A stretch of DNA of 64,000 nt, taken from Escherichia phage vB_Ec-G1. Shown here piece by piece: positions 7,114 through 45,228 of this stretch; position 1 is the stretch's first letter; the number at the start of each line of letters is the position of its first letter. The stretch is taken from the sequence record PQ433349.1; one strand, 5' to 3'. A program made the translations under genes and the position numbers. The notes beneath the pieces were generated by a model, which was given only the letters and a program-made list of their open reading frames with translations, was not told where the DNA came from and did not search any database.

Positions 7114-7114
7114 A

Positions 7115-7393: not shown

Positions 7394-7949
7394 GCATACC
7401 TCCTCTACCAATTTTGAAGCCCAAATCGTAAGCTTCCTTAGTGATCTTTTGTAACTCACTTATAGGAAGTGTTACAAGAGGATCATCTTCTTCAATTTCC
7501 ATCTTGTCATCTTCTGTTTCAATGAGAGTATTATGCACTTTGTGATAAGGGTTGTCAACACGTTTAAACTTATTCTTTTCTGTGCTGAAAAAACAGTCTG
7601 GATCTTCTTCACCATCACCCCAACCTTGGTTAGGATCTCCGTCAGATTGTTCTGTAGGGATTTCACCTGTAAAGTACTCTTCCAGCACCATAGCAATACC
7701 GTCCCTTGGATTTGAGGAATGCATTAAATCACAAACCTTACCCCAATCCATAGCCCATTCGAACCGTTCACGAATGCCATTTTCATCCTCCTTCCCAGAG
7801 AAAACACAACCATAACTATCATAGTTGCCATACATCTCTTCAATAACAACACCGTCCTTCAAAAGAAAGAGGTAGCAAGGTGATCCGTCGAAAGAAGTAG
7901 AAAGGGCAGCTTTGCCCGATTCTTTGCACAAAAAGCTAAAACAACCCAT
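7386..7949 (-). CDS. hypothetical acidic protein (187 aa)
   Basis: Track ORF, operon orientation. Confidence 0.5.
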   Translation of the reverse strand: MGCFSFLCKESGKAALSTSFDGSPCYLFLLKDGVVIEEMYGNYDSYGCVFSGKEDENGIRERFEWAMDWGKVCDLMHSSNPRDGIAMVLEEYFTGEIPTEQSDGDPNQGWGDGEEDPDCFFSTEKNKFKRVDNPYHKVHNTLIETEDDKMEIEEDDPLVTLPISELQKITKEAYDLGFKIGRGGMRV

Positions 7950-8347
7950 TACAAACCCTCCTTCAGATTATCAAGAGCTACAGTGGTTTCACAAAATTCT
8001 CCATAAGCTTTATGATGTTCCAGAAAAGCTTCGGGTCCACCCCAGTCATTATCTTGTGTATTCCAGCCATCAATAAAAGCATCTTCAATGATTGTGATCA
8101 GTTCCTGTCGAGTCAACGTAATGGTATCAGGTTTCTGCGTAGTTTCCACACGGAACCCTGGTTCTTCATAAAAACCTTTAGTTACAATGGATTCTAACTC
8201 TTCTGCATCACAGAGGAAGTAGCCACAAAGATAACACCAACCGTCATCATCTTTCATTACTTCATAAACTTCACCACTTGCTAACTTGGTGAAAAGAGTA
8301 GGGTCTGTTACTGTAAGTTTTAAAAGAATACCTGTTGGATTATACAT
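7949..8347 (-). CDS. hypothetical protein (132 aa)
   Basis: Track ORF, operon orientation. Confidence 0.5.
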   Translation of the reverse strand: MYNPTGILLKLTVTDPTLFTKLASGEVYEVMKDDDGWCYLCGYFLCDAEELESIVTKGFYEEPGFRVETTQKPDTITLTRQELITIIEDAFIDGWNTQDNDWGGPEAFLEHHKAYGEFCETTVALDNLKEGL

Positions 8348-8513
8348 CTTCTTCCTCCTCTAAAATATGGAACCCGTAATTACAATAATCCTGAAAGGTT
8401 TCGTGTGCAAGATCTTCTATATCCTCTTGAGACATATCATCTTCAATTTCGATATCCACAACCTCATTGCATCCACACCAAGCAGTTTCAATATTCACTC
8501 GTAATATTTTCAT
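8340..8513 (-). CDS. small acidic hypothetical protein (~57 aa)
   Basis: Below track cut-off; ATG overlaps upstream stop, GGAG RBS; fills an otherwise empty gap. Confidence 0.3.
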   Translation of the reverse strand: MKILRVNIETAWCGCNEVVDIEIEDDMSQEDIEDLAHETFQDYCNYGFHILEEEEDV

Positions 8514-8710
8514 TACTCCTCCTCCTCATTGAAGTCAATATCTGCAAGGAGTTCGAATTTACGGAAGTTACGACAACCTTCATAAATATAACAATCACGA
8601 CAAACTGCTAGAACACTTGGGGGATATATGCCTCCCATCGGTGCGAATCGTTTTTCGTCATCATAACGGACACCAATGTCTTCATCAATTATATAGATAC
8701 GGATTCTCAT
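8513..8710 (-). CDS. small hypothetical protein (65 aa)
   Basis: Track ORF, operon orientation. Confidence 0.4.
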   Translation of the reverse strand: MRIRIYIIDEDIGVRYDDEKRFAPMGGIYPPSVLAVCRDCYIYEGCRNFRKFELLADIDFNEEEE

Positions 8711-9819
8711 TTACCAAGCCCTCGTTTCACAGCAGCTACCATCCCGTCTTCCAGAGATTGAACTTCATTAATATAATCAACACGAGCAGCACGGGCTTCC
8801 GTATTGATGCGGTTAGTTTCTTCCAACATCTTAACCAAGTTTTCCTGATCGTGACGCAGAGTTTCAATATCCAACACTTGACGGTTAGCCAGTGCTGCTG
8901 CTTCGATCTGATTCTGTGTAGCAAGATCGCTACCCAGTTTAATTGCCAGGTTAAATTCATCAAGAACGTTATTCTGCGTCTCTGCTGCTTTCATTTGACG
9001 TAAGCTCTCGATATACATTGAGAAGTTAGCAGAGTAAGCAGGAATAACATTATTTACTATGTTACGCGCAGATCGCATTAAGCTTGCAGAAACTTTTTGC
9101 ATACCTTGTACACGCGGTCCCATTTGGACACACAGTAGGCGCAATGCTTTTAAATCTGCAATACGAATCTCCAGAAGATCCAAAGTATCTCGGATCACTT
9201 GTCGCTGTTCTACTGCATCTTCTGGAAGAGCAGCCAAAGCTTGTTCTTCTTTTTCATAGGTTGCTGTTAGAAGCTGCATATCTCGGTTCAAACTTGCAGC
9301 ATATTGTCCAATAGCTTGATGTAGCTTTTCAAGATATACCAAGGAATCTTCTTCTTTGCGAATATCCATTTGAAGGTTCTTTACCAACTCTTCAATACGG
9401 TTATTAACATTATCAAACTCCCCAAACAGGTCTTCTTTCATACCCATAACTTTTTTAATGAGTTTAGTAATACCCTTGCTTTGTTTAATAGAGTTTGGAT
9501 CAAGTTGTTTTGCCTGTTTAATCAAAGCTGTGAGTCGTTCACTCATCTGATCGCCTTGATTACTACGTTGATGTTTTAATACCTCGGCATTCAAGGAACG
9601 CAAGGTTGTTCCTGCCTCTGCCCCAATCTCTTCGATCTCTTGTCGGGTCATAGAAGGCAAAACTGGAACTTCTTGCGGTGCCGCTGGTGCATAAACAGGA
9701 CTGGCATCTAACACGCTTGGAGCGAATACAGATTTACTTGCATCTGTTGTTGCAGCAAATACGCTCATTTCAGGCTTCTTCTGACCACCAGTAACTGCTT
9801 TTAAAAATGGACTTGTCAT
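8707..9819 (-). CDS. TelA-like (toxic anion resistance / KlaB family) protein
   Basis: 370 aa, predominantly coiled-coil; length and periodicity resemble TelA family; adjacent to TerD, vWA and TerC genes. Confidence 0.5.
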   Translation of the reverse strand: MTSPFLKAVTGGQKKPEMSVFAATTDASKSVFAPSVLDASPVYAPAAPQEVPVLPSMTRQEIEEIGAEAGTTLRSLNAEVLKHQRSNQGDQMSERLTALIKQAKQLDPNSIKQSKGITKLIKKVMGMKEDLFGEFDNVNNRIEELVKNLQMDIRKEEDSLVYLEKLHQAIGQYAASLNRDMQLLTATYEKEEQALAALPEDAVEQRQVIRDTLDLLEIRIADLKALRLLCVQMGPRVQGMQKVSASLMRSARNIVNNVIPAYSANFSMYIESLRQMKAAETQNNVLDEFNLAIKLGSDLATQNQIEAAALANRQVLDIETLRHDQENLVKMLEETNRINTEARAARVDYINEVQSLEDGMVAAVKRGLGK

Positions 9820-10406
9820 TCTTCATTCTCCTCTTCTGCATCTCTTATATATGGTGAAACACCGTACTCTTTAGCTACTTTAACCCAATCGTCCCATTTA
9901 TACAACCATAATTTTCCTTCGGTCCCTTCTTTATCTGATTTCAACCACATATTAGGTTGCTTACCTGGGTACATGCGATTAGGTTTACGATTATAACCTC
10001 TAACACATCTTGTCGCAAACCTATCTACCAGAACAAGAACATATTTATATTCGTGGTTCAACGGCTCTTTGGAAGTGGCTTTAGGATTAGCCCCTAATTC
10101 TGCTGCCAGTTTTTGCCAATGAGCACCGTGCCTACTAAACTTACCCATACAACCATCAATAGCATGAGCAATTTCGTGCTTCATTGTATCCACGATCATA
10201 TCTCTTGTAGAGTTCTTATGCAAGTGCCAATTTACAACAACAATTTTATCTCGGTAGTTGCACCAACCGAAAGAGTTATTCACTTTGTTTCTAACACAAG
10301 CTTTATATCCTGCTTCACGTAACATGTTGTAGTAAACAGGAAAATCTTCTTTTATTTCCTGCATCACTTCCCACCACAAGAGTTGCAAGTCTCTCTCGGT
10401 ATACAT
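9816..10406 (-). CDS. SprT-like zinc metallopeptidase domain protein
   Basis: 196 aa; HEIAHAIDG (HExxH) motif with downstream His. Confidence 0.45.
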   Translation of the reverse strand: MYTERDLQLLWWEVMQEIKEDFPVYYNMLREAGYKACVRNKVNNSFGWCNYRDKIVVVNWHLHKNSTRDMIVDTMKHEIAHAIDGCMGKFSRHGAHWQKLAAELGANPKATSKEPLNHEYKYVLVLVDRFATRCVRGYNRKPNRMYPGKQPNMWLKSDKEGTEGKLWLYKWDDWVKVAKEYGVSPYIRDAEEENEE

Positions 10407-10409
10407 AAC

Positions 10410-11003
10410 TTACACCTTAAAAGTGAAATGCGTGGTCGTGGTTTCAAAATCAGGACCAGATAAACGTGCACTGAAATCTGAAATATTTGTAATTAAAAAG
10501 CTTTTATGCATACCTAACACAGCTACGCTTTCAATATCTTCTACTAACATTTCAATCATGTTAGAAACATGGCTGAACGTAGAGTTTTGTTTTTTGATGG
10601 TGTAGAAAGAAAGATTACCACCTGCTGTATAAGATACCTCTTCAAAATCTTTAATCGTATATTGTGTGCCATCAGTAAAGAAAATGGTAGCTTTATTAGT
10701 AGCACGTTTCTTGTTTTTTGGTCCTTTTTTACGTTTACTGCGAGTAGGCAAACCGTTTGGGAACACCATAGCTACAAATTCTTCAGCAGAAACCTCCTTA
10801 CCGAAATCATAACCATAAGAAACAGCGTCTATAAACTCGTCATCTTCATTTTTAAAATAATGGAAATAGGGCCAATTTGAGAGATTATCGAGCATCTTAT
10901 GCTCGTCCACAGCAGAGAATGTATCCCTCAAAGCGCGTGTGATTTGCAAAGCATTAGGCAACCTTTTAACACCTACGATGGAAGTACGAATAGAAATTGT
11001 CAT
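10410..11003 (-). CDS. hypothetical protein (197 aa)
   Basis: Track ORF, operon orientation. Confidence 0.5.
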   Translation of the reverse strand: MTISIRTSIVGVKRLPNALQITRALRDTFSAVDEHKMLDNLSNWPYFHYFKNEDDEFIDAVSYGYDFGKEVSAEEFVAMVFPNGLPTRSKRKKGPKNKKRATNKATIFFTDGTQYTIKDFEEVSYTAGGNLSFYTIKKQNSTFSHVSNMIEMLVEDIESVAVLGMHKSFLITNISDFSARLSGPDFETTTTHFTFKV

Positions 11004-11017
11004 TGTTTTTCTCCTTA

Positions 11018-11455
11018 TTAACGTCGCTTGCTACGAGATGAACTCTTTTTACTTAAAGGGCTATTGTAAGATTTACGAGTTGTATAGCTACTATTTGTTT
11101 TAAAAGTTTGTCTCGGCTTTTCATAAGTTTTTATCTCTTGTTTAGGCTTACCATAAAAATTAGTTTTCGGTTTAGGTGTATTATAATGCTTATTAATAAT
11201 CGTTCTGTTATCGTTATAATCCCCACTGTTACGATTACTACCACCACTCATCATATGCCCTAACAACATACCTGTAGCAAACTCACCAACACCGCTACTA
11301 CTAGAACCGCCACCATTGTTGATAATAGTTGTATCTCCGTCAGATCCTTGTTGAGCGTATTGTTGAGGAGGTTGTTGGTATTGTGCAGGATTTGTTTCAT
11401 CCTCACAAGCTGTTAAAAAGATACAACCAATTAAAATCAGGGCTAGTTTTTTCAT
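11018..11455 (-). CDS. putative lipoprotein with low-complexity Q/G/S-rich region
   Basis: Trimmed to MKKLALILIGCIFLTAC start with AGGAAAG RBS; lipobox-like LTAC after hydrophobic stretch. Confidence 0.5.
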   Translation of the reverse strand: MKKLALILIGCIFLTACEDETNPAQYQQPPQQYAQQGSDGDTTIINNGGGSSSSGVGEFATGMLLGHMMSGGSNRNSGDYNDNRTIINKHYNTPKPKTNFYGKPKQEIKTYEKPRQTFKTNSSYTTRKSYNSPLSKKSSSRSKRR

Positions 11456-11642
11456 ATTTGCTTTCCTCATTTTGACTATTAATACATCTGTGTTTGAAAT
11501 CTCCAGAGAAGCAATAAAGTTGCTCTCCATCTCGGTATAAACTCACTTTACTGCCGTTGATTACGCTTGTCAATACAAAAATTACAACAAACAACCCTAT
11601 TGCAAAACAAATATTTTCAAACACAATCAACAAGTATTTCAT
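11403..11642 (-). CDS. small membrane protein (79 aa)
   Basis: Hydrophobic N-terminus; ATGA start/stop coupling with upstream gene; overlaps lipoprotein start by about 50 nt. Confidence 0.35.
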   Translation of the reverse strand: MKYLLIVFENICFAIGLFVVIFVLTSVINGSKVSLYRDGEQLYCFSGDFKHRCINSQNEESKYEKTSPDFNWLYLFNSL

Positions 11643-11989
11643 TTTAAAAATACCTCATCATCAGTTTCATTATCCCAGAAGAACAAATCCCAACCATTCG
11701 GATCATTCCATTTGGCTGCTGGAGAAGTCCATATTTGTTCGATATCAATATTCAAAACTTCACCGTTTCGTTTTGAAACAGCTTTAGTTAATTCCCAACG
11801 AGATACAGGCTCTACTTCCCCTGAACCACTCCCACAACAAGCTACCACGTTAGGAGGCAAATTAATTGGATCTTTGGTCACGATCATAACGCTTACCCCA
11901 GGGTAAACTTTTGAAAGATAATCTAAAACGTAATCCACATCACCAGATAAATCCCAAACAAGTTCTTGAATTTCATCAAAATTATTCAT
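11639..11989 (-). CDS. hypothetical protein (116 aa)
   Basis: Track ORF; AGGAG RBS. Confidence 0.5.
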   Translation of the reverse strand: MNNFDEIQELVWDLSGDVDYVLDYLSKVYPGVSVMIVTKDPINLPPNVVACCGSGSGEVEPVSRWELTKAVSKRNGEVLNIDIEQIWTSPAAKWNDPNGWDLFFWDNETDDEVFLK

Positions 11990-12000
11990 AAGTCTCTCCT

Positions 12001-12024
12001 ATAAAATAGCCTCCCGAAGGAGGC
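12001..12024 (-). terminator. rho-independent terminator after TerC-like gene
   Basis: GCCTCC-cgaa-GGAGGC hairpin followed on the minus strand by a T-rich tract. Confidence 0.5.
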
Positions 12025-12031
12025 TCATCTA

Positions 12032-13006
12032 TTAAACAGCAGCTTCTTCTTTTTCAGGGAAGATAAAGCTTGCAATAACACCAAGAGCTAATGTGCCTAG
12101 AACAATCATCAGACTTACGTTAGGGGAAATATCATGCGGGAGGAATGACCACTTGGCATGAAGTGTTTCACCGAACGGGTGATACATAAGTTTAGCACCG
12201 ACAAATACCAGAACCACAGCAACAGCTTTCTCTAAGTGAACCAGATATTTCACAGCCACACTTAACACAAAGAAAAGTGCACGTAAACCAAGAACAGCCA
12301 TCAGCATTGCAGAATAAACTAGCAGAGGTTCTTGTGTCACACCGATCACAGCCGGAACTGAATCAAAAGAGAAGACAATATCTGTAAGCTCAATAACAAA
12401 CACACAAAGAAGAGCAGGAGTTGCATATTTAATACCATTCTTAATGGTGATGAACTTTTCACCATCCAGTGCATTGTGCACAGGCAGAACTTTACCTACT
12501 AAACGAACAGCCCAATGCTTAGAGTAATCAATATCCTCTTCTTCGTCACCACCTTTGATGATAGCCACGGCAGACCAAGCTACAATCAAACCGAACAACA
12601 CTTGGACCGACCAATGAAGGTTAAACAAAGCGGTCCCTGCTGCAACAAAAATACCTCGGAAGACAATGGCTCCTGCAATCCCCCAAAGTAAAATCTTATG
12701 TTGGAGATGTGTGCTCTTAATTCCAAAGCTTGCAAAAATTGCCATGAACACCATCAGGTTATCTACAGAAAGACTCTTTTCCAACACATAGCCACTTAGG
12801 AAAAGCGCGGCAAACTCTTTACCATGTTCTACCCAAATGAATGCGTAATATCCTAAAGCTAAAGCAATCCAAAAAACAGACCAAAGCAAAGCAGATTTAA
12901 TTCCAATTTCTTTATTCTCTTTATGACCAAAGAAATCAATACCAATAGACAATGCTAAAATACCAACTAAAACAACTACATCAATAATGGGGAAACCAAG
13001 TTGCAT
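12032..13006 (-). CDS. TerC-family integral membrane protein
   Basis: 324 aa; multiple hydrophobic helices; conserved LSVDNLMVF and acidic DGEK features typical of TerC family. Confidence 0.6.
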   Translation of the reverse strand: MQLGFPIIDVVVLVGILALSIGIDFFGHKENKEIGIKSALLWSVFWIALALGYYAFIWVEHGKEFAALFLSGYVLEKSLSVDNLMVFMAIFASFGIKSTHLQHKILLWGIAGAIVFRGIFVAAGTALFNLHWSVQVLFGLIVAWSAVAIIKGGDEEEDIDYSKHWAVRLVGKVLPVHNALDGEKFITIKNGIKYATPALLCVFVIELTDIVFSFDSVPAVIGVTQEPLLVYSAMLMAVLGLRALFFVLSVAVKYLVHLEKAVAVVLVFVGAKLMYHPFGETLHAKWSFLPHDISPNVSLMIVLGTLALGVIASFIFPEKEEAAV

Positions 13007-16133: not shown

Positions 16134-16584
16134 TTGCCGTTTTGGTCCATAATCTTTGATTATCTGACCCTCTGAAAGGTTTTGTAGTTGGATTGTTTAT
16201 TTCATACTTTCCGTCTACAATAATGTCAACAAGATTTTTAATATACAAAGGCACTTCCTCAAAAGTATATCCTGTATACACCATTATATCTTTGCTTGAC
16301 CCATAAACATCTCTAACCTTTTCTATAAGGTTTTTAACATTGTAAATATTCTGCGGATCTAATGGCTCTCCTCCTAAAATTGTTAAACCTTTTACAAACG
16401 GTCTTGACAAATCTTTTAAAACTTGCTCTACATTTTCGTGAGTAAACGGTTTCCCATAAGAATAAGACCAGGCTTTTTGGTTAAAACAGCCACGACAACC
16501 GTGGCTACAACCACTAACCCAGAGGGAGCACCTAACTCCCTCGCCATTAATAAGATCTACAGGTTCATATCCTGCAAAATTCAA
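16114..16584 (-). CDS. nrdG: anaerobic ribonucleotide reductase activating protein (radical SAM)
   Basis: 156 aa; CSHGCRGCFN radical-SAM cysteine cluster; immediately downstream of NrdD. Confidence 0.85.
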   Translation of the reverse strand: MNFAGYEPVDLINGEGVRCSLWVSGCSHGCRGCFNQKAWSYSYGKPFTHENVEQVLKDLSRPFVKGLTILGGEPLDPQNIYNVKNLIEKVRDVYGSSKDIMVYTGYTFEEVPLYIKNLVDIIVDGKYEINNPTTKPFRGSDNQRLWTKTASGWQSD

Positions 16585-18395
16585 AGATGTTTCTCCCTTT
16601 GCAAAACTTCCTGCATTTTACCTTTGTTGTAAGGGCGTGAATTAGGGGCAGAAAGATACCCTGACACACGTCTAACTACAGAAATAGTTTCTTCTTCATG
16701 GTTGCCACAATCAGGACACTCAAACCCTTTAGCCGTTGCCTTAAATTCTCCATGAAAACCACACTTAAAGCATTGATCCACGGGCTGATTAATACCAAAA
16801 TAGTGAATATGTTCATAAGCGTAGTCTACTAAAGTCTCCAAAGCTTCTAAGTTATTCTTTAAGTTTGGTGTTTCGACATAACTTATGTTACCACCATTAC
16901 TAATCTGTGCAAAACCTGCTTCATAATCCCATTTTTCAAAAGGATTTGTTACCAACCATACAGGTTGATGAAAAGAGTTAGTAAGATAATCTCTTTCTAC
17001 CAAACCTGGGTATTTTTCATTTAAAGCTGTTGCAAACTTATAGCACAAGGATTCTGCTGGAGTTCCATAGAGACTAAACGCCAGCTTAGATCGTTCTTTA
17101 AACACAGCACACACATCTTTCATATGTTGCAGAATGCTTTTACCAAGTTCCTTTTTATCTTTTTCTTCTGGATAAAGGATTTCCAAAGCTTCGGCAAGAC
17201 CTACATAACCAATACTAATAGAAGCATAACCACCTTCAAACAAAACACCAATTTCATCATTGGCATTTAAACGCGCTAAAGCCCCTTCCATGAAAAGAAT
17301 AGGGTTTTCAGATGCTTTGGTATGTCTGATACGGTTTACACGTAGCATGTGAGCATCGTAGGCTATCTCCATATGTTTATTAAGAAGATCGGTGAAAGAT
17401 TCTCCTTTACTTCTTGCTTCCGCAGCAATCAGAGGCAAGTTGATAGAAACTACTCCAAGGTTGAATCGTCCATCATATTTTTCTCCTTGTTCGGTGGCAT
17501 AGTACGACAAAAAGGAACGACAACCCATACTCGTAACGGTACCATCTGCTGATCCCGTAACTTCTTTGTTCAAAGGAACAGAAATAAAATCTGGATAAAT
17601 ACGATCAGCACAACATGCCAAAGCTTGTTGCTTAAGGTCGTAGTTAGGATCACTAGGTTTCATGTTAACACCTTCTTGTAAAAAGAAAATAACTTTAGGG
17701 AATACAGGCGTTACATGATCTTTGCCTAGACCGTTACTATGCACTTTAAGATAGTTAGCTGTGATCATTCTGCCAAAAACAGAGGTATCCAGACCCATAC
17801 TGATTGTAATAAAAGGAGATTGTCCATTAACACTCATTAAAGTGTTAACCTGATACAAAAGAGTTTGCATAGCGTCATATACATCTTGTTCGGTCATTTC
17901 TAGGGCTTCTTTCCTTGCATAACAACCGTAGCGACGTTTGGTTATCTCCATGTTTTTAAGGAAACTGGCTTCAACATAAGGACTAAGACCTTTATCAATG
18001 TGCGCACACGTTTGACCTCCATACTGACTGGAGGCAACAGCTTGGATGATTTGAGTTAGCACTGTAGTAGCCACCCCAATAGATTTTGGTTTTTCTATCT
18101 GTGCGGCTCCGATCTTAAAACCATTCTCTAACATATCTTGATAATTAACAAGACAACAGTTTGTAAGAGGAGAGAGTAGATAATCCAAGTCGTGAATATG
18201 TCCAAAACCTTCTGTATGCCATTCTGACAAGTTTTTTGGCAGTATCTGTGTCATTGCCATATGTTTGCTTAAAATCCCCGCCAAGAGATCCCTATGCGTG
18301 TTAACGAGGTGGGAAGGTTTGTTTGCATTCTCTCTAGTGTATGTTTCTGAAGTGCGATCTAAAAAAGAAAAAACATCTTGGTACAAATCTTTCAT
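16581..18395 (-). CDS. nrdD: anaerobic ribonucleoside-triphosphate reductase (class III)
   Basis: 604 aa; C-terminal CPDCG zinc site and glycyl-radical motif RVSGYL; overall NrdD-like. Confidence 0.9.
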   Translation of the reverse strand: MKDLYQDVFSFLDRTSETYTRENANKPSHLVNTHRDLLAGILSKHMAMTQILPKNLSEWHTEGFGHIHDLDYLLSPLTNCCLVNYQDMLENGFKIGAAQIEKPKSIGVATTVLTQIIQAVASSQYGGQTCAHIDKGLSPYVEASFLKNMEITKRRYGCYARKEALEMTEQDVYDAMQTLLYQVNTLMSVNGQSPFITISMGLDTSVFGRMITANYLKVHSNGLGKDHVTPVFPKVIFFLQEGVNMKPSDPNYDLKQQALACCADRIYPDFISVPLNKEVTGSADGTVTSMGCRSFLSYYATEQGEKYDGRFNLGVVSINLPLIAAEARSKGESFTDLLNKHMEIAYDAHMLRVNRIRHTKASENPILFMEGALARLNANDEIGVLFEGGYASISIGYVGLAEALEILYPEEKDKKELGKSILQHMKDVCAVFKERSKLAFSLYGTPAESLCYKFATALNEKYPGLVERDYLTNSFHQPVWLVTNPFEKWDYEAGFAQISNGGNISYVETPNLKNNLEALETLVDYAYEHIHYFGINQPVDQCFKCGFHGEFKATAKGFECPDCGNHEEETISVVRRVSGYLSAPNSRPYNKGKMQEVLQREKHL

Positions 18396-31981: not shown

Positions 31982-32340
31982 TTGACGTTCAAATTATGCG
32001 CAACGAAAGAATGGACTTCTTTGAAGCAGTAGAGAAACATCTGATCCGATGGGACTATGAATTTGTTCCTGCTGGATGTGGACCAGTAGAGCATTTAGCG
32101 GAAGACGACGATGTATACATGATCATTCGTCAAGTGTACCAGACAGACCAGTGTGAAGAAACTCCCGAACTGATTTTGTTTGAGTGTAAAGATCTTGCAA
32201 AATATTTTGACTATGGCGGAAAAGAGGGTCATAATCTCTCCAGATACAATAAACGTCTACTTATCTTAGACTACATGCGGAACAACAAACACAAACTCAT
32301 CGACGCAGACGCAGTTTATGGCTACTGGTGGATGGACTAA
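31975..32340 (+). CDS. hypothetical protein (121 aa)
   Basis: Track ORF. Confidence 0.5.
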   Translation: MLVDVQIMRNERMDFFEAVEKHLIRWDYEFVPAGCGPVEHLAEDDDVYMIIRQVYQTDQCEETPELILFECKDLAKYFDYGGKEGHNLSRYNKRLLILDYMRNNKHKLIDADAVYGYWWMD

Positions 32341-32353
32341 CAAAGGAGAAACT

Positions 32354-32533
32354 ATGGCACGTTTAGCAGATCATGAAATCTTTAAACCTATTCTGAACCA
32401 CTATGATGAACTTAAAGCAGTGTTGGATTGTTATAGAGAGGATGAAGAACGTTTGGAAGTCAATCTTAAGATAGTTCTGATGAAAGCTTTTCAAGACGGG
32501 CAAGCTAAAGTTTTAGAAGGCATGAAAAAATGA
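32354..32533 (+). CDS. small hypothetical protein
   Basis: Trimmed to ATG after AAAGGAGA RBS. Confidence 0.45.
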   Translation: MARLADHEIFKPILNHYDELKAVLDCYREDEERLEVNLKIVLMKAFQDGQAKVLEGMKK

Positions 32534-33072
32534 GAATAACTGATGAATATGTATTCTTCTTTTCACATAAAGATGTGTTTAGTAATTGGTATATTGCACC
32601 CTTTACAGAAACTGAACCAGGTTACAATGAGACTTTCTGTTGTGTTGAGCAATATATGATGTGGCGTAAGGCTTTGCTGTTCAAGGATCATGCGATTGCA
32701 GCAGCTATCCTTGATCACTCAACTATACGTGACAACGAGAGGAAACAAGCATACTACAAACGTATGGGTCGAGCGGTATCTGGTTTTAATAATGATATGT
32801 GGGAAGAGAACCGTGAGCGTATTGTTATGCGAGGCTTATGCTTGAAATATGTACAGAATCCAGATTTGTATGCAGACTTACACCTTTACCAATACAAAAC
32901 GTTTGTTGAAGCAAGCCCCTACGATAAGGTTTACGGAATTGGAATGGGGATGTATGAACCAGGGGTGCTAAACCCTGCTACCTGGAAAGGGCAGAATCTT
33001 TTAGGCAAATATCATAATAAACTGATCGAAATACTTTTCCCAGACAAAATACCGCAAAGACGATATTTGTGA
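32530..33072 (+). CDS. NADAR (YbiA-like, DUF1768) domain protein
   Basis: 180 aa; F.F...SNWY..PF...F..VEQYMMWRKALLF...MGRAV..F...W...R...M...KY.QNP.L...L.....FVEASPYD..YGIG pattern matches NADAR. Confidence 0.6.
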   Translation: MRITDEYVFFFSHKDVFSNWYIAPFTETEPGYNETFCCVEQYMMWRKALLFKDHAIAAAILDHSTIRDNERKQAYYKRMGRAVSGFNNDMWEENRERIVMRGLCLKYVQNPDLYADLHLYQYKTFVEASPYDKVYGIGMGMYEPGVLNPATWKGQNLLGKYHNKLIEILFPDKIPQRRYL

Positions 33073-33127
33073 TATTTTAACTTTTTTCATTTTTAGAACA
33101 AAGGTGTCACTTTGTAGCACAGAAATA

Positions 33128-33163
33128 AGGCTCCTACAGCACCGTAGAGAGCCTGTTATTTTG
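33128..33163 (+). terminator. rho-independent terminator after NADAR gene
   Basis: GGCTCCTAC-agcacc-GTAGAGAGCC hairpin followed by TGTTATTTTGT. Confidence 0.55.
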
Positions 33164-33169
33164 TCCTAT

Positions 33170-33520
33170 ACAAACCCTTATCTTTTTCAGTTTGCATCAC
33201 TAGGATTCGATCTAAGTGGGTTCCTGAAGGTCTGCCAATAAGATTAAAGGTTATCTCAAATTCCCACTACCTATTATCTCAAAAATCCCTCAAATTATTT
33301 AAACTTTTTAAGAATTTACAAAAGTGAAAGTTGAAAACCAAAATTTAAAGTTTAGGAAAATTATCTTAAAATGTTAGATACAAAACAAAACTCAAAAATC
33401 AAGGAAAATTTTAAAAATTTTGCGCGCCCACAGTATTTAAAGTTTTTTTGCTTTTACAAAAATGAAAGTACAAAAGCAAAATTTAAAGTTTACAAAAATT
33501 TATGCAGATGGGAATGAGAA
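33170..33520. repeat. AT-rich intergenic region with short direct repeats
   Basis: Repeated TTATCTCAAA, AAATTTAAAGTTTA and TTTACAAAARTGAAAGT units; no ORF. Confidence 0.45.
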
Positions 33521-33620
33521 GAGTTCTCATATGGAAATGCAAATGATAATGATTCGCATTTAGGTTTATAAATGAGATTGATTCTTATTCAATAAGGTAA
33601 ATGATAATCATTCTCATTTA
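33512..33620. promoter_or_regulatory. three tandem palindromic operator-like sites (Fur-box-like)
   Basis: ATGAGAAgagTTCTCAT, AAATGATAATgATTCGCATTT and AAATGATAATcATTCTCATTT; resemble the TGATAATnATTATCA Fur-box core. Confidence 0.45.
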
Positions 33621-33878
33621 AAGAATGACGCGCAGGGGCGGTGTTTGTCTCGCGCTCCCGTGTCCCCTCGCCATGTAATAAGAATAACAGATCCAGCCAG
33701 GAAAGCAAGCGATTATTTTATCTTTACATTTCTTTACAAATATATAGCGCCCAGCCTACCGGCGATCAACCTTCCAACCAGTGCCCCCTGGTATGTTAGC
33801 CCCGCCTTTACGCCGTGGGGTGGCGCTTCCTCTTCTGTATGTAAAACAGTATAAGCCCGATCCCTGGGCTTGTCAAGA

Positions 33879-34145
33879 TTATTTTTTGTTTTCTTGCCAG
33901 GATAGGACACCTAACCAAAAATATATATCGCCCCGCGCCCCTGGTGGTATCTTGCTTTCCCCGCCGCCACTGCAAGCCCATAGATAACCATTTGCGAACG
34001 TATCAAAATGATCTATCTCTTCCACCTTATGATCGCCCAGGTTGAGAACGGTTTCAACCTTTAAGCCCGTTGCGCTTGCTACCTGGTGCACCGTGCCGCC
34101 TTGCCAGCCCAATGAGTGCATAAGGTGTAATGTAGTATTTGTCAT
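33879..34145 (-). CDS. hypothetical protein (88 aa) on opposite strand in a GC-rich island
   Basis: Only minus-strand ORF inside the plus block; GC-rich codons; plausible RBS; function unknown. Confidence 0.3.
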   Translation of the reverse strand: MTNTTLHLMHSLGWQGGTVHQVASATGLKVETVLNLGDHKVEEIDHFDTFANGYLWACSGGGESKIPPGARGDIYFWLGVLSWQENKK

Positions 34146-34254
34146 GGTATCGCCCTTTCTTTGATGTGCGCCCTGGTTGGCGCGGTAGAAAGATGATAGC
34201 CCTTTCTTTTATATATAGCAAGCAAAAAGAAAATAAAAAAGATTGAAAAAGTGA

Positions 34255-34313
34255 TTGACGTTCGCCAGGTGGCGGCATAATATTTACCACGTAGGGCGGC
34301 AATGGTGCCGCTC
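34255..34313 (+). promoter_or_regulatory. cassette 1: promoter + stem-loop
   Basis: TTGACG-N17-TAATAT then GGGCGGCaatggtGCCGCTC. Confidence 0.55.
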
Positions 34314-34332
34314 ATTATTTGGAGTTAAAATC

Positions 34333-34530
34333 ATGGCAACATTGCACATTGTGGCGAAAGCTGGACAAATAAACGTGGTAGTAAACGGTTTTACTGAGTT
34401 CAGTCATCCCCAGGATGATCATGAAACGGTTTTATCTTTCATTGATTCACTGTTAGAAATGGGAGTAATTACAGAAGACCAGCACGCTACAAAATGCAAG
34501 CGCGTTAATCAAATTGCAGGGATAGAATAA
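34333..34530 (+). CDS. small hypothetical protein
   Basis: Track ORF 34255..34530 trimmed to ATG downstream of cassette 1 hairpin with GGAG RBS. Confidence 0.5.
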   Translation: MATLHIVAKAGQINVVVNGFTEFSHPQDDHETVLSFIDSLLEMGVITEDQHATKCKRVNQIAGIE

Positions 34531-34536
34531 AAAGTA

Positions 34537-34599
34537 TTGACAACAAACAACAACCTGATAAGATGTATCACATAGGGCGGCGGAATGGTCCAGCCGCTC
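34537..34599 (+). promoter_or_regulatory. cassette 2: promoter + stem-loop
   Basis: TTGACA-N16-TAAGAT then GGGCGGCGGaatggtCCAGCCGCTC. Confidence 0.55.
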
Positions 34600-34622
34600 A
34601 CAACAGAAGAGAGATTATAATC

Positions 34623-34895
34623 ATGGCATCATATAGCGCAACAATGATCGTAGCTGGCACCACTGGTAAACCTATGCGCGGTGGCGGATCTTTCGCTAAT
34701 ATCAATATTGACGGGCGTTTATCCCTGGACGCAGCGATCACCGTGGCGCGGGAAACATTTAAGAAAGAATGTAAATTCAATAAACAAGATTATCTCGGTT
34801 TCGCTATTGAAAAAACCGCGCGTTTTGTTGATTATAAAAGCCCAAAAATGGTTGATACTACACTAAAAGCGCAAGATGTAGCGTTTTTGCTTTAA
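34623..34895 (+). CDS. hypothetical protein
   Basis: Track ORF 34563..34895 trimmed to ATG after cassette 2 leader. Confidence 0.5.
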   Translation: MASYSATMIVAGTTGKPMRGGGSFANINIDGRLSLDAAITVARETFKKECKFNKQDYLGFAIEKTARFVDYKSPKMVDTTLKAQDVAFLL

Positions 34896-34898
34896 GGC

Positions 34899-34954
34899 TT
34901 GACATTAACGAATAATTTGTTAATATGTTACATAAAGCGGGAATAGTTCCCGCT
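34899..34954 (+). promoter_or_regulatory. cassette 3: promoter + stem-loop
   Basis: TTGACA then GCGGGAAtagTTCCCGC hairpin. Confidence 0.5.
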
Positions 34955-34971
34955 ATTTGTAAGGTGGTAGA

Positions 34972-35229
34972 ATGTTTTACATCAAATTAAAAGGTCACGT
35001 GATCGCGTTCAAAGATAACGCTTTTTACAGATTAGCAAAATATGCGTTAATACATCCCCACTATGTTTATATAAGGGGGCGTGATGAAATAAATATCTTT
35101 GATCAAACAACATGCGAGAACATCGAGATCCGCAAGGTTGGCGTACGTGATTATCGTACATCTTTCTACCCTTGCAAGGATTCAGCAAGTCTTTTTAAAG
35201 TATGCCAATTGTTGAAAAAAGGTGGTTAA
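34972..35229 (+). CDS. hypothetical protein (85 aa)
   Basis: Track ORF after cassette 3. Confidence 0.5.
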   Translation: MFYIKLKGHVIAFKDNAFYRLAKYALIHPHYVYIRGRDEINIFDQTTCENIEIRKVGVRDYRTSFYPCKDSASLFKVCQLLKKGG

Positions 35230-35230
35230 T

Positions 35231-35788
35231 ATGGGCCGCGAATATGTGATCCAGTCTTGGGTAAAACATGAAGCAGATGATCCGCGCATCATTCCCGATC
35301 ATCTTATCGATGAATCCACGGGATATAGCGGTGAGCAAATAGGTAACAGATTAGCACGTAGTAACGGCAACGTAAAAGCGCGTTATGTGCGCCCTGGTTG
35401 GCTGGCAAATGGTAACGCTGATTTATCCAGTGCGGAAGATGCGAGCGACGGCGCGAAAGATAATCCTTTGTACAAAGTTGATCCGGCTTTTCGTGTCCTG
35501 GATGAATACCCCAGCAAGATAGCGGCGCTCGATCAGGCCCTGGAAAGTAAGCGCATCACCTGGACCGCTTACAACATGGCAAAAAACGTACTTGATGGTA
35601 AATTGATTCAAGCTGAAAGAAAATTAGCCAAAATTGCAGCCATAGCCCAGGAGGAAGACGAGGAGACAACGGAAGAGGAAGAGTACGAAGAGATCCCGCC
35701 GTTGTTGTGTGTTGATGCTTTTCCTGATTATCAGCCGACAGAGGAAGAAAAAAGGATCGCACTAGAAAACTTTGAAAATAGTCTTTGA
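35231..35788 (+). CDS. hypothetical protein with acidic C-terminus
   Basis: Track ORF trimmed to ATG after AAGGTGG RBS. Confidence 0.5.
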   Translation: MGREYVIQSWVKHEADDPRIIPDHLIDESTGYSGEQIGNRLARSNGNVKARYVRPGWLANGNADLSSAEDASDGAKDNPLYKVDPAFRVLDEYPSKIAALDQALESKRITWTAYNMAKNVLDGKLIQAERKLAKIAAIAQEEDEETTEEEEYEEIPPLLCVDAFPDYQPTEEEKRIALENFENSL

Positions 35789-35843
35789 CATATCGCCGCC
35801 ACTGGCATAATATTTACCACGTAGGGCGGCAATGGTGCCGCTC
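35785..35843 (+). promoter_or_regulatory. cassette 5: promoter + stem-loop
   Basis: TTGACA-N17-TAATAT then GGGCGGCaatggtGCCGCTC (near-identical to cassette 1). Confidence 0.55.
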
Positions 35844-35870
35844 ATAGTGAAATTATGCAAGAGGCTTACA

Positions 35871-36419: not shown

Positions 36420-36425
36420 AAACGG

Positions 36426-36482
36426 TTGACACTGTTTAAACTTCTGGTATAGTTTATCACGTAGGGCGGCAATGGTGCCGCC
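36426..36482 (+). promoter_or_regulatory. cassette 7: promoter + stem-loop
   Basis: TTGACA-N17-TATAGT then GGGCGGCaatggtGCCGCC. Confidence 0.55.
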
Positions 36483-36502
36483 AACAATAAAAGGTTAACA
36501 TC

Positions 36503-36682
36503 ATGGCTATCATTGCAAAAACTGAGATTATAGGTTTAGATTCGATCCTCCTGGCTTATGAGGAAACTTTAAAAATGTATGTAGTGACCTATGGTGATTA
36601 TGTGCGTGAATACGAATACATTGATCTTGCTTTCGAATGTTACATTCGCCAGGTCAATAAAGCCTATAATGATTATCGTTAA
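36503..36682 (+). CDS. small hypothetical protein (~59 aa)
   Basis: Below track cut-off; follows cassette 7 with RBS. Confidence 0.4.
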   Translation: MAIIAKTEIIGLDSILLAYEETLKMYVVTYGDYVREYEYIDLAFECYIRQVNKAYNDYR

Positions 36683-39647: not shown

Positions 39648-39854
39648 ATGATCACCGCAAAACAAGAAAAAATTATTATCGACGTTGCAGCCGTTGCCGC
39701 TATTGCTATTATTGGATCTTATTATGATACCCGTTTCCCGTCGGCTATGCATGAGATCGCCGCCGTTGCATCAGTTGGCGTGCTGTTTTACGTTGGTAAA
39801 CGCTATTTATCACCAATGATTAACAAGCTAACACCGTGGAAAAATAAAGGTTGA
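39648..39854 (+). CDS. small membrane protein (68 aa)
   Basis: Track ORF; hydrophobic segments. Confidence 0.5.
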   Translation: MITAKQEKIIIDVAAVAAIAIIGSYYDTRFPSAMHEIAAVASVGVLFYVGKRYLSPMINKLTPWKNKG

Positions 39855-39905
39855 TCCTGCTTTATATTGTGTTATAGTTATCGTGTAGGGCGGCAATGGT
39901 GCCGC
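39851..39905 (+). promoter_or_regulatory. cassette 17: promoter + stem-loop
   Basis: TTGATC -35 then GCGGCAatggTGCCGC hairpin. Confidence 0.45.
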
Positions 39906-39926
39906 GCCCCCTTTGAGGATGAAATC

Positions 39927-40211
39927 ATGAGTAAAGCTAACACCGTGCTAATGTTTTCCTTGGTTAATGATGCCGCTTACTTGTCCAACATGACGCAGGA
40001 GGGTAACACATTAACGGCAACATTCACCAATAAGCTTAATCGAGTGATCATCATCTCACTGAAAACAATTAGTAAAGGCGTTTACTCGTTAGCTTATCAT
40101 TGGATCACTGATACCAACGAGACAAGCCAGGACTATAGCGCCCCTTTCCCTGAATCAATGGCACGGGAGATCATCGCCGCCGTTGTAAATGATGGTTTGT
40201 TTACTGCATAA
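39927..40211 (+). CDS. hypothetical protein
   Basis: Track ORF 39867..40211 trimmed to ATG after hairpin/RBS. Confidence 0.5.
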   Translation: MSKANTVLMFSLVNDAAYLSNMTQEGNTLTATFTNKLNRVIIISLKTISKGVYSLAYHWITDTNETSQDYSAPFPESMAREIIAAVVNDGLFTA

Positions 40212-41808: not shown

Positions 41809-42191
41809 AAACAGAAATCATTATTGAAATCATCAACGGTTATAAAGAAGCCTTTATTTTTGCTGAATCAGCCAGGGATCACGAAGGTAATTTTATTGAT
41901 AACTTAGACGATTATGATTTTTCAGATCAAGCCCATCAGCGGATCGCCCAGGATGTAACAGCCTTTATTAATGCTAATCTTGCCGCTATCTCTGAGGCAA
42001 TGAGCGACGGCGCAACAGCCAACCAGATCGGGAATGATTTACATTTTACCCGTAACGGTCACGGCGTAGGATTTTGGGATCGCCCTGAAATATACACCAC
42101 TAACACGGCGAACCGCCTAACCAATGCAGCTAAGTTTATGCCGAATGTGTCGGCTTACATTGGTGAAGATAATTTGATTTATATTGAATAA
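41805..42191 (+). CDS. hypothetical acidic protein (128 aa)
   Basis: Track ORF, overlapping start/stop with upstream gene. Confidence 0.55.
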   Translation: MKTEIIIEIINGYKEAFIFAESARDHEGNFIDNLDDYDFSDQAHQRIAQDVTAFINANLAAISEAMSDGATANQIGNDLHFTRNGHGVGFWDRPEIYTTNTANRLTNAAKFMPNVSAYIGEDNLIYIE

Positions 42192-42197
42192 AAAGTA

Positions 42198-42254
42198 TTG
42201 ACACAGATCGCCAGTGTGCTAATATTTACCACGTAGGGCGGCAATGGTGCCGCC
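42198..42254 (+). promoter_or_regulatory. cassette 23: promoter + stem-loop
   Basis: TTGACA-N17-TAATAT then GGGCGGCaatggtGCCGCC. Confidence 0.55.
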
Positions 42255-42272
42255 GATAACGAGGAAAGTAAA

Positions 42273-42572
42273 ATGGAAACTATCGCTATTGTTACCGTAG
42301 AAAAACTGGTTGTTGGTGATGTATTCGCGTTAATGGTGCCTAACAGCAGCAAGCTGGGCGCTTATGAAGTGATGGACCATAAAAATGAATCATTTGGCGA
42401 CGGTTGCACAATGGCGGTAAGATCCTTAAAGGATGGAATCATCCGCCAGGCTAACTGGCACAAAGGGAATCAAGTCGGTTTAATATCAGCTAATTTCTTG
42501 CCAGAAGAGCAAACATTAGACCAACTATCAGGCGGTAAGACGTTAGCCGAACTACTGGAAACAGCGATCTAA
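42273..42572 (+). CDS. hypothetical protein (99 aa)
   Basis: Track ORF after cassette 23; followed by GGGGCGgcaaCGCCCC hairpin. Confidence 0.55.
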   Translation: METIAIVTVEKLVVGDVFALMVPNSSKLGAYEVMDHKNESFGDGCTMAVRSLKDGIIRQANWHKGNQVGLISANFLPEEQTLDQLSGGKTLAELLETAI

Positions 42573-43720: not shown

Positions 43721-44688
43721 GTTGATAGCTTAAACCTATGAAAAACCGACACAGAACAAAATTGCATAATTTGCGCTATCGAGCTAATCAACCATTAAAC
43801 GAATAACCATACATCCCAGGGAAACAGGTTGTTAGAGAGCTATTTAGAGCGGTTAAAATCGATCTACAACCAACAACAAACCATCAAAAACACCCTTTTA
43901 CCTCCTTTCTAGTGCAATGATAACCATTATCATCTACCTATGATTATCTATTCAATATAAGTGCATAACTATAATGTTGATAATAGTTCGCAACAACTAA
44001 CCCACCAACAACCTAAAACAATAAGCAAACTAATCATAATCAAAGGAATAATAGCAAGATGATTGATAACGACAAACAATCAAACCATGATGAATATTAA
44101 GCAAGATAACGATAACACGACAAAACAACCAACTAACGAACAATAACAAACGAAACCATTAAAAGATCAACTATTAGCAAAATAGTGCCTATTGCCATAA
44201 TAGTGACTTAATGAAATCATTACAAAATGAATCATTCCAAGGATCATCATTAGCACGCTACGCCGGACACGTAGCGAGCTAATAATAAGCCAACTACACC
44301 CCAACAATCATAACCATCGGTGACGGTTATTTCTTGTTACTGCGTAGCTTGCAATAATTGCAAGCGTAATGACGCTTACACTTATTGCGCTGGCTTATTA
44401 TTAGCATTATATGTAATTACCAAGATCATAACATTAGCGCAATAACAATAATCATTGTGGTAATTACAAGATGAAATCATTAGCAAGATGAATAATTGCA
44501 CGTAGCAACATGAGCGAATAGCGACAGGTTGCATAGTGTGCACATAGTGTATAAACATACAAGAAAATAAAGGCTAATCTTTTGGGGGCGAATACTATCG
44601 CGTAGCGATATGTTGAGCACCTTCTCTTAAACGTAAATAAAATCAGAAAATTCTTGATTTATTTTAGTTTTTATGTTAATAAACGTTT

Positions 44689-44709
44689 AAATAATAATCA
44701 TTCTCATAT
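44689..44709. promoter_or_regulatory. Fur-box-like operator site
   Basis: AAATAATAATCATTCTCATAT resembles the sites at 33541-33620. Confidence 0.35.
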
Positions 44710-44867
44710 AAATAATAGTCTGCTTGTCATGAGCGGGATTAGTTGACATTGTTCCGTCATATGATGAAGTTGCCAAACCATTGATAAATAAGTGTTTGTG
44801 TGATTTATAATCAAGTGGCCCACCTTGTCGCTATGTTGGCATGAGCCTTGCATAAGTCATTGAATAC

Positions 44868-44888
44868 GAATGATAATTATTCTCATTC
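44868..44888. promoter_or_regulatory. Fur-box-like near-perfect palindrome
   Basis: GAATGATAAT-T-ATTCTCATTC, 10-1-10 inverted repeat with one mismatch. Confidence 0.45.
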
Positions 44889-45228
44889 GCATGATATTTG
44901 GGAATTGTCGCTGCGTGGACCTGACGGCCCGAAAATTCGCGTTAAGCACTTCTTACGTATGCGCCATGATTTTTGCCATATGATATTGATTCTATTAGAT
45001 ATTCTTGCCATGATTGCCATGAAACAGGGTGTCCCGAAATAATCTCTCCCCGTAGATATTTTGGGTTACTTTTTATACAAGAGTGGGGTGTCAAAAATAA
45101 TCGGTATATATGGGATAATTGATAGGAATCCCCTATGATAATTCGATTGTAATTCCCTAAGATTGATCGTATGATGTTGGTGATTGATGATTGCCATGAA
45201 AGATGGCTAACGATGAGAGGAGATTGTC

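Follow-up and report, generated by a model that had tools for sequence, protein, structure and literature searches.

The primary origin of phage T7 consists of the promoters phi1.1A and phi1.1B followed by an AT-rich region, and the T4 origins oriF and oriG combine a promoter with a downstream unwinding element. Direct repeats are the basis of the iteron origins, and repeat 3 of the Vibrio PLE satellite, which lies in non-coding DNA, has been shown experimentally to be an iteron. Phage T5 has a non-coding repeat region, Repeat Region 3, that is the injection stop signal; Davison (bioRxiv 10.1101/866236) treats DnaA boxes as the key feature of this site and describes its palindromes without mention of Fur or LexA.

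Few coliphages and Salmonella phages have a broader host range than the phAPEC8-, phi92-, rV5- and PVP-SE1-like phages, which are widely isolated for use in therapy and biocontrol. The replication origin of these groups has never been located. The rV5-like replisome comprises a T7-type primase-helicase and Pol A (rV5 paper; Bas54 annotation), and the rV5 paper states that the origin could not be located, skew analysis having given only changes in transcription direction. Our search of the literature returned no description of the module reported below, and nothing relevant on an rV5-group origin or on Fur boxes in virulent phages.

Here we analyse a stretch of 64,000 nucleotides from Escherichia phage vB_Ec-G1 (PQ433349.1), referred to as the window, which carries a tract of AT-rich direct repeats. 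We find that the repeats are genuine, that they are non-coding and strongly conserved, and that they are at present the leading candidate for the replication origin of this phage group.

Repeats at the centre of a non-coding module

The window belongs to a Phapecoctavirus, a phAPEC8-like E. coli myophage. A 2-kb query around the repeats matched 143 phage records, all of them Phapecoctavirus (Stephanstirmvirinae), with Escherichia phages UP17, ukendt and ESCO13 the closest at 99% identity. Minus-strand genes extend to 27.2 kb, and from 27.3 kb onwards the genes are on the plus strand. The repeats sit within a gap of ~800 bp that lacks conserved ORFs; its left neighbour is a NADAR-domain gene, its right neighbour an 88-aa minus-strand ORF (Table 1). 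Read along the plus strand of the window, the gap forms a module with a definite order: GATATTT motifs, a terminator hairpin, TATCTCAAA motifs, three direct repeats, one to six Fur-box-like palindromes and a GC-rich block. The repeats occupy the centre of this module. The initial annotation had placed an AT-rich tract with direct repeats at this locus, which the repeat search, self-BLAST, shuffles and a GC content of 0.215 bear out, and had named the NADAR terminator and Fur-box-like sites as its flanks, which are upheld by the Pfam match, the hairpin and the palindromes. Absent from it were the larger shared module, the GC-rich promoter block and the genome ends ~11 kb away.

Table 1. Positions of the module features and of the early-gene cassettes in the window
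Feature	Position	Strand	Details
NADAR-domain gene	32530–33072	+	Pfam E=3e-35
GATATTT motif pair (GATATTTGTGATATTTT)	33062–33080	+	overlaps NADAR stop codon; left edge of module
GC-rich hairpin	33128–33164	both	U-rich run on both strands; by folding; annotated terminator in ASO2A and phAPEC8
TTATCTCAAA motif pair	33251–33283	+	23 bp apart; starts 33251 and 33274
Direct-repeat unit 1	33291–33362	+	head TTATTTAAACTTTTT, tail AAAACCAAAATTTAAAGTTTA
Decayed middle unit	33363–33428	+	ATTATCTTAAAATGTT ... GGAAAATTTTAAAAATTTTGCGCGCC; intact counterpart in other genera
Direct-repeat unit 3	33429–33500	+	head GTATTTAAAGTTTTT, tail AAAAGCAAAATTTAAAGTTTA
Four Fur-box-like palindromes	33513–33620		by repeat search; between repeats and GC block
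GC-rich non-coding block	33621–33878	−	two tandem predicted sigma70-type promoters
Promoter P2 (predicted)	−35 33708–33703, −10 33686–33681	−	predicted start near 33675
Promoter P1 (predicted)	−35 33876–33871, −10 33853–33848	−	TTGACA-17-TATACT; 11/12 positions match
88-aa ORF	33879–34145	−	no Pfam or PDB match
Early-gene cassette copies	34225–34330, 34530–34620, 35750–35860, 36425–36530, 39845–39950, 42170–42275

The core of the array is a 72-nt direct repeat, the two copies of which (units 1 and 3) are 82% identical at a spacing of 138 bp. Self-BLAST of the window recovers the pair as a match of 67 nt at 83.6% (E=3.5e-14). The best ungapped self-diagonal within 33170–33520 scores 39.5, against 10.6 ± 1.3 (maximum 17) in 300 dinucleotide-preserving shuffles of that segment, none of which (0/300) reaches the observed score. 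Two sub-motifs, TTTACAAAARTGAAAGT (33315 and 33453) and CAAAATTTAAAGTTTA (33339 and 33477), lie inside the repeat unit. The duplicated strings of 15–40 bp quoted in the initial annotation are such sub-motifs of a genuine repeat, the unit of which is about 64–72 bp long, and the array holds three units, the middle one decayed.

Shorter motifs accompany the array. TRF reports the TTATCTCAAA motifs as period 24 with 2.1 copies, and the decayed middle unit begins with a third, degenerate copy (TATCTTAAA, 33362). Seven TATCTYAAA sites occur on the two strands of the 64 kb, three of them within 110 bp at the repeats. The TATCTCAAA motif is also found two to three times upstream of the repeats in phiWec179 and in six PVP-SE1-like and Klebsiella-phage-like loci. 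GATATTT, which starts at 33062 and 33071 in the window, likewise marks the left border of the homologous module, with two to four copies, in phiWec179, Citrobacter phage Tr1, CR9, PVP-SE1-like loci and Bas54.

GC content is 0.215 across 33300–33499, and by nearest-neighbour free energy no 200-bp stretch of the 64 kb is less stable than 33292–33491 (z=3.4); at the 200–250-bp scale the minimum of the window is the repeat tract. Phased A-tract curvature is not indicated, as there is no 10–11-bp AA/TT periodicity in the tract and the peak, at 12.75 bp, is reached by 14% of shuffles. Folding gave no RNA structure in the units (z=−0.4 and +1.2 versus shuffles), which fits a role at the DNA level. 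The segment 33040–33640 contains no DnaA box (TTWTNCACA) and no IHF site (WATCAANNNNTTR), with one two-mismatch site against 2.9 expected per 600 bp, and the oriC 13-mer GATCTnTTnTTTT is absent at the module, where GATC occurs once.

The unit head TTATTTAAAGTTTTT, with at most one mismatch, has no site in the 64 kb outside this locus. We considered and rejected several simpler identities for the tract. A general phage promoter motif is not supported, since TTATTTAAAGTTTTT at up to three mismatches occurs at chance level (17 sites against 13 expected) and the units hold no conserved sigma70 −35/−10 pair. A link between the head motif and the terminal repeat was dismissed as well, there being a single three-mismatch match at 44680 and none in the BME3 terminal repeat. 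As for a small protein gene, the sole ORF in the tract (33371–33517, 48 aa) is of low complexity and has a stop at codon 15 in ECO340P2, and the ORFs annotated here in some records lack conservation. A tRNA or other known RNA gene was likewise rejected: ARAGORN found no tRNA gene in the 64-kb window (10–13 are reported for this phage group), and Rfam gave no credible match at E up to 10 in 32000–35500.

To the left of the array, the hairpin folds at −25.5 kcal/mol (z=−4.5) on the plus strand, followed by UGUUAUUUUGU, and at −24.5 kcal/mol (z=−2.45) on the minus strand, followed by UUAUUUCUGU. It is predicted to be the terminator of the NADAR operon on the plus strand. Because it folds on both strands and is U-rich on both sides, leftward (minus-strand) transcripts from the GC block probably end near 33130 as well.

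To the right, the Fur-like cluster includes TGATAATCATTCTCA at 33602, one mismatch from the 7-1-7 Fur motif. The copy number of these palindromes varies among relatives, and their sequence is the same across hosts and lineages. The best Fur-box-like matches in the 64 kb are confined to the module and to the terminal non-coding region or terminal repeat, where sites at 43918, 44692 and 44871 (43916–43932, 44688–44710 and 44868–44890) have one or two mismatches to TGATAATnATTATCA; two such sites (50–85 and 250–275) are present in the BME3 terminal repeat of 342 bp as well. By these matches, Fur-like sites mark both large non-coding regions of these genomes.

The GC block is non-coding, as indicated by frame-breaking indels in relatives. 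Both of its predicted promoters point towards the Fur-like sites and the AT-rich repeats, and the P2 hexamers are invariant, with a variable spacer, across 14 lineages. The AT tract begins ~165 nt past the predicted P2 start, with the Fur-like cluster (~110 bp) in between. A leader hairpin after P2 has two covarying pairs; RNA covariation in the GC block is weak (four pairs, covariation term −1.8 kcal/mol). Two relatives depart from this arrangement. The ETEC-TG record lacks 381 bp equivalent to window 33787–34167. Gone with them are P1, the 88-aa ORF and the core of the GC block, its most conserved part; P2, the repeats and the Fur-like sites are retained. Provided that the assembly is right, the absent part, P1 included, would be dispensable. 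In the IMG/VR locus IMGVR_UViG_2974574029_000001, the GC block is split by a minus-strand gene of ~0.7 kb, ~1 kb upstream of the pattern match at 7087, and the right half of the block is present upstream in a second, diverged copy. By its arrangement, this insertion looks like a homing-type element that has invaded a conserved target.

Proteins encoded around the module are NADAR, an HNH/CapR endonuclease, an AAA ATPase (PHROG label 'ATPase'), the 88-aa protein and small proteins without assignment; Pfam, PHROGs and PDB searches of these neighbours revealed no initiator-like gene. A homologue (MTNTEYLMKALGWQ...) of the 88-aa protein (MTNTTLHLMHSLGWQGGT...) adjoins the module in a CR9-like contig, on the opposite strand. 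Farther away, genes at 6319–13006 and 16581–18395 of the window encode TerC, TelA and vWA-TerF-like proteins, a tellurite-resistance-type set, together with the anaerobic ribonucleotide reductase NrdD.

The terminal repeat of the close relative Schickermooser is reported to be 328 bp long (Korf et al.), and that of BME3 is 342 bp. The Schickermooser repeat maps to window 44616–44944 (329 bp), and the module thus lies 11.1–11.8 kb inside the right genome end, bordering the inner side of a block of small early genes. The distance from module to end is similar in BME3 and Bas54. From 34.3 to 44.6 kb the window contains small genes, several of which have a sigma70 promoter cassette (six aligned). 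This cassette, at least six copies of which are present in the 34–43-kb block, has a sigma70 promoter (TTGACA-17-TAATAT) and, after it, an invariant leader hairpin, GTAGGGCGGCAATGGTGCCGC, directly ahead of the ribosome-binding site. The least stable 100 bp of the window, 44621–44720, falls inside the terminal-repeat region. Within it is an inverted repeat (TTAAACGTAAA / AAACGTTTAAA), whose core, AAACGTTT, is PurR-like and lies next to a Fur-like site.

Conservation of the array and tolerance to insertion

We compared the repeat units with those in the homologous gaps of phiWec179, Tr1 and two Justusliebigvirus genomes. A gapless alignment of all units gives the consensus TTATTTAAA.TTTTT.....TTT....A....AA..T..AAAA..AAAA..T.AA.TTT, and unit 1 of the window aligns without gaps to units of phiWec179, Tr1 and AMO3598. 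Units are 64–72 bp long, ~65–75 bp in the module at large, with a spacing of 63–78 bp. Three are present in Tr1 (spacing 67+76 bp), AMO3598 (67+75 bp), CR9 (78+63 bp) and Bas54 (65+74 bp). The window and phiWec179 have two units, 138–139 bp apart, with a remnant of the middle unit between them, and unit 3 of the window matches repeat R3 of Bas54 in position. Across all lineages examined, the first and third units are 138–143 bp apart. Orthologous units are more similar (0.83 and 0.79) than paralogous ones (0.77), which indicates that the array is ancestral and has been maintained, and rules out recent duplication or gene conversion.

The whole gap recurs as one module in CR9-, PVP-SE1-, phiTE- and rV5-like phages (Vequintavirinae type) and is common to two phage subfamilies, phAPEC8-like and rV5-like coliphages included. 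When the GC block was used as an anchor, 231 phage records of the Stephanstirmvirinae and Vequintavirinae type were matched, and the GC-block pattern was used to fetch 13 IMG/VR loci; the most conserved core of the block is 33721–33845. The unit sequence varies by lineage, the Vequintavirinae-type repeats reading GGKTCTCGATCG..TTTTC..ATCGTATT. A comparison with related phages, proposed in the initial annotation as a check, thus finds the array, its spacing and the module conserved across lineages.

Divergence was measured from the window to eight close Phapecoctavirus genomes and, separately, to phiWec179. Units 1 and 3 are unchanged in the eight close relatives (0.000) and differ by 0.19 and 0.15 from phiWec179. 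The corresponding values, for the close relatives and for phiWec179 respectively, are 0.027 and 0.36 for the decayed middle unit, about 0.03–0.05 (tabulated at 0.047–0.049) and 0.52 for the interleaved spacers and 0.073 and 0.34 for the Fur-like cluster. The NADAR gene diverges by 0.082 in the close relatives (0.16 at third codon positions) and by 0.29 at third positions from phiWec179. The units are under tighter constraint than adjacent coding DNA. For the GC block the values are 0.022 and 0.027, the latter being a divergence of 2.7% from phiWec179 against 29% at third codon positions.

Transposon sequencing (HIDEN-SEQ) with per-gene results is available for the rV5-like phage Bas54 (MaxBurger, MZ501093; bioRxiv 10.1101/2025.11.20.689424), which belongs to another subfamily than the window phage. 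By our reading of the MZ501093 sequence, the small 'ORFs' bas54_0100, 0101 and 0102 make up the module: bas54_0100 spans repeats R1 and R2, 0101 spans R3 and the AT-rich tail, and 0102 spans the last Fur-like site and the GC block. One of three TA sites was hit in bas54_0100 (mean 5 reads/site, call NA), none of 11 in 0101 (mean 0 reads/site, Essential) and 5 of 15 in 0102 (mean 13 reads/site, Strong fitness defect). On the two sides, bas54_0096 to 0099 had 86–100% of TA sites hit (Non-essential; mean 220 reads/site in 0099), bas54_0103 had 12 of 14 (mean 152 reads/site, Intermediate) and 0104 to 0107 had 100% (Non-essential) (bioRxiv 10.1101/2025.11.20.689424). The Bas54 module is thus nearly free of insertions, while the flanking genes 0099 and 0103 tolerate them. 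No promoter is stated for the selectable anti-CRISPR marker of the transposon itself, and the dearth of insertions in non-coding DNA might therefore be due to weak expression of the marker instead of essentiality. The module accounts for the tiny 'essential ORFs' of this screen, and annotation pipelines have put spurious small ORFs on it in several records.

A '~2 kb intergenic region without insertions' in Bas54 is not the homologous locus, as it lies 11.5 kb downstream of the module. This region of ~2.5 kb (MZ501093 92,786–95,297; L033 32787–35298) has its positional match at window 43.7–45.2 kb. Since that is the relative position of the window's terminal region, it is probably the genome terminus or packaging region.

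A candidate origin and alternative functions

We tentatively propose that the AT-rich repeats are the core of a cis-acting, transcription-activated phage replication origin. We give this proposal somewhat less than an even chance. The predicted early promoters P1 and P2 would send host RNA polymerase leftwards through the Fur-like sites into the repeats, and the two-way terminator at about 33130 would halt it. As at the T7 primary origin or T4 oriF/oriG, leftward transcription would either melt the AT-rich tract or provide the primer used by a T7-type replisome of primase-helicase and Pol A, enzymes with which a transcription-primed origin would fit. Initiation would occur at the repeats, the array doubling as the unwinding tract. 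The ~70-bp units may be docking sites for a phage-encoded protein that co-evolves with them, and such a protein would account for the different units of rV5-like and phAPEC8-like phages of the same host. The Fur-like palindromes, being constant across hosts and lineages, are probably read by a host protein. As far as sequence comparison goes, the contrast between lineage-specific repeats and constant palindromes suggests that a phage factor reads the former and a host factor the latter.

Several observations argue for an origin: (i) the repeat is far beyond chance and coincides with the least stable 200–250 bp of the 64 kb; (ii) units 1 and 3 are without change in eight relatives in which the NADAR gene differs by 8%; (iii) the array is ancestral and its span is fixed at 138–143 bp; (iv) the predicted promoters P1 and P2 are conserved, their hexamers being invariant and their spacers variable; and (v) the homologous module of Bas54 is almost free of transposon insertions. 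Against this, no initiator-like gene lies nearby and DnaA box, IHF site and oriC 13-mer are absent, the units are three to four times longer than classical iterons, the AT tract starts ~165 nt past the predicted P2 start and not directly after it, and the absence of P1 and of part of the GC block from ETEC-TG would make at least P1 dispensable. The suggestion in the initial annotation of an origin or heavily regulated control region is partly supported, in that the evidence favours a functional, constrained cis-acting element with origin-like anatomy. Such an element is indicated by the unstable DNA, the fixed spacing, the predicted promoters reading in, the zero divergence and the scarcity of Bas54 insertions; the case for an origin in particular is weakened by the missing initiator gene, binding sites and oriC-type 13-mer and by units far longer than iterons.

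Other roles for the array have to be weighed against the same data. The repeats could bind a phage or host protein that controls transcription and has no part in replication, for instance by silencing or timing the leftward P1/P2 unit, by insulating the NADAR operon from the early region or, together with the Fur-like sites, by soaking up a host factor. A position between terminator and promoters, at a transcription-unit boundary, is what such a role would lead one to expect, conserved spacing with lineage-specific sequence would suit any cognate protein–DNA array, and the adjacent Fur-like sites are operator-like and recur in the terminal region. We nevertheless find regulation of this kind unlikely, given that no protein-coding gene lies downstream of P1/P2, that the confinement of the head motif (at most one mismatch) to this locus within the 64 kb does not fit a general promoter or operator, and that a decoy or insulator is not expected to be intolerant of insertions, as the Bas54 counterpart is (subject to the marker caveat). 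The product of P2 could itself be functional, the region being the template of a ~540-nt AU-rich non-coding RNA (antisense, sponge or regulatory transcript) that ends at the terminator at about 33130. A predicted minus-strand promoter and a terminator do bracket the region, and the leader hairpin after P2 has its two covarying pairs; yet the units fold no better than shuffles (z=−0.4 and +1.2) and match nothing in Rfam at E up to 10, a fixed span with lineage-specific heads typifies DNA–protein arrays and not RNAs, and the sole ORF (33371–33517) is broken by a stop in ECO340P2. An RNA function is, in our judgement, very doubtful.

The location of the module invites two further explanations. 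Like the T5 injection stop, it could be a boundary for DNA entry that separates the terminal block of small early genes, with repeats and palindromes binding proteins that stall transfer, or tether and organise the incoming DNA. The distance of 11.1–11.8 kb from the right end, similar in BME3 and Bas54, and the small genes at 34.3–44.6 kb, several with the sigma70 cassette, are compatible with this, as are the direct repeats and palindromes of the T5 stop region and BLAST matches between the Fur-like cluster and T5-like phages at about 9.7–10 kb, in the untranslated repeat region of the transfer stop. However, these contractile-tail phages are not known to transfer their DNA in two steps, the module is not within a long terminal repeat (the repeat here is only 329 bp) and lacks DnaA boxes, the direct repeats have no T5 counterpart, and the similarity is limited to the Fur-like palindromes, which could be convergent use of one host protein. 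A stop of the T5 type is accordingly quite improbable here. A packaging or terminus signal was prompted by public records that begin in or beside the module (ETEC-TG position 1 is window 33244) and by the ECGD1 gene numbering, which wraps across it. The ETEC-TG record is circular and its start is thus arbitrary, the terminal repeat of a close relative maps 11 kb off, at 44616–44944, and that of BME3 is also far from its module; we rejected the locus as a genome terminus or packaging site on the mapping of the terminal repeat, and a signal of this type is extremely unlikely. A broader synthesis would make the module a host-factor-gated organising centre, partly shared with T5-like phages. Fur, recruited by the palindromes at the module and at the genome ends, would gate transcription into the repeats (iron-responsive initiation) or, as in T5, hold the 11-kb early block apart, and the 138–143-bp span would be the footprint of a wrapped nucleoprotein complex. 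This scheme is speculative, and we regard it as unlikely.

Taken as an origin candidate, the module is precise and testable, with about 230 bp of repeats, a fixed 140-bp span and defined predicted promoters. If the Fur-like sites are functional, the module would connect the host iron regulator with a central step in lytic development and with the T5 repeat region, which is still unexplained. The feature is real, conserved and probably essential in cis. In kind it is ordinary, an origin-like repeat tract; its construction is unusual in combining long units, a promoter block and a Fur-like array with a span fixed at 140 bp.

Comparison with known origins and repeat regions

Among known systems, structured RNA families offer no parallel, there being no Rfam match at E up to 10 and units that fold like shuffles. 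With the unwinding element of E. coli oriC (the 13-mers), the tract shares AT-richness, repetition and the lowest stability of the surrounding DNA, but it differs in having neither the GATCTnTTnTTTT 13-mer nor DnaA boxes and only one GATC.

T5 Repeat Region 3 is closer in layout, with ~1 kb of non-coding direct repeats and palindromes ~10 kb from the end and beside small early genes, and its palindromes match the Fur-like sites of the module by BLAST. Untranslated repeats and palindromes lie about 8% (about 10 kb) from the end in T5 and at 11.1–11.8 kb here. The T5 region, however, sits in a 10-kb terminal repeat and has paired DnaA boxes, and the module has neither; the Schickermooser repeat is 329 bp and lies 11 kb away. 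In the T5-like phage HASG4, five Fur-box-like palindromes lie in the injection-stop repeat region (1030–1560 of the HASG4 locus), together with two DnaA boxes (TGTGGATAA) and a near-perfect LexA box (TACTGTATATTTATACAGTA). The module has no LexA-box-like site, and T5 has no TTATTTAAAGTTTTT-type units.

Iteron origins (lambda ori, plasmid oriV and Vibrio PLE repeat 3) resemble the module in having direct repeats next to or within AT-rich DNA, and its lineage-specific repeat sequence is as expected for a cognate binding protein. Such origins have at least three tandem direct repeats, to which the initiator binds, and an adjacent AT-rich unwinding region. Here there are two intact units and one decayed unit in the window, with three clean units in Tr1, AMO3598, CR9 and Bas54, and the unwinding region would correspond to 33292–33491. 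Classical iterons are about 17–22 bp long with about two helical turns between them, whereas these units measure 64–72 bp at a spacing of 63–78 bp; the flanking ORFs include no Rep/O-type initiator gene, and DnaA and IHF sites are absent from 33040–33640.

The T7 primary origin and T4 oriF/oriG differ from the module in three respects: its promoters are of the host sigma70 type, the AT tract is separated from them by ~110 bp of Fur-like palindromes, and the tract consists of three long conserved direct repeats, which the T7 and T4 origins are not known to have. The likeness is in the basic design. The module is without an evident separate initiator gene, and the phage group has a T7-type primase-helicase and Pol A. 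As at the T7 and T4 origins, tandem promoters, in our case the predicted P1 and P2, read into an AT-rich, easily melted tract, which is the arrangement expected of a transcription-primed origin with promoters directed into its unwinding element.
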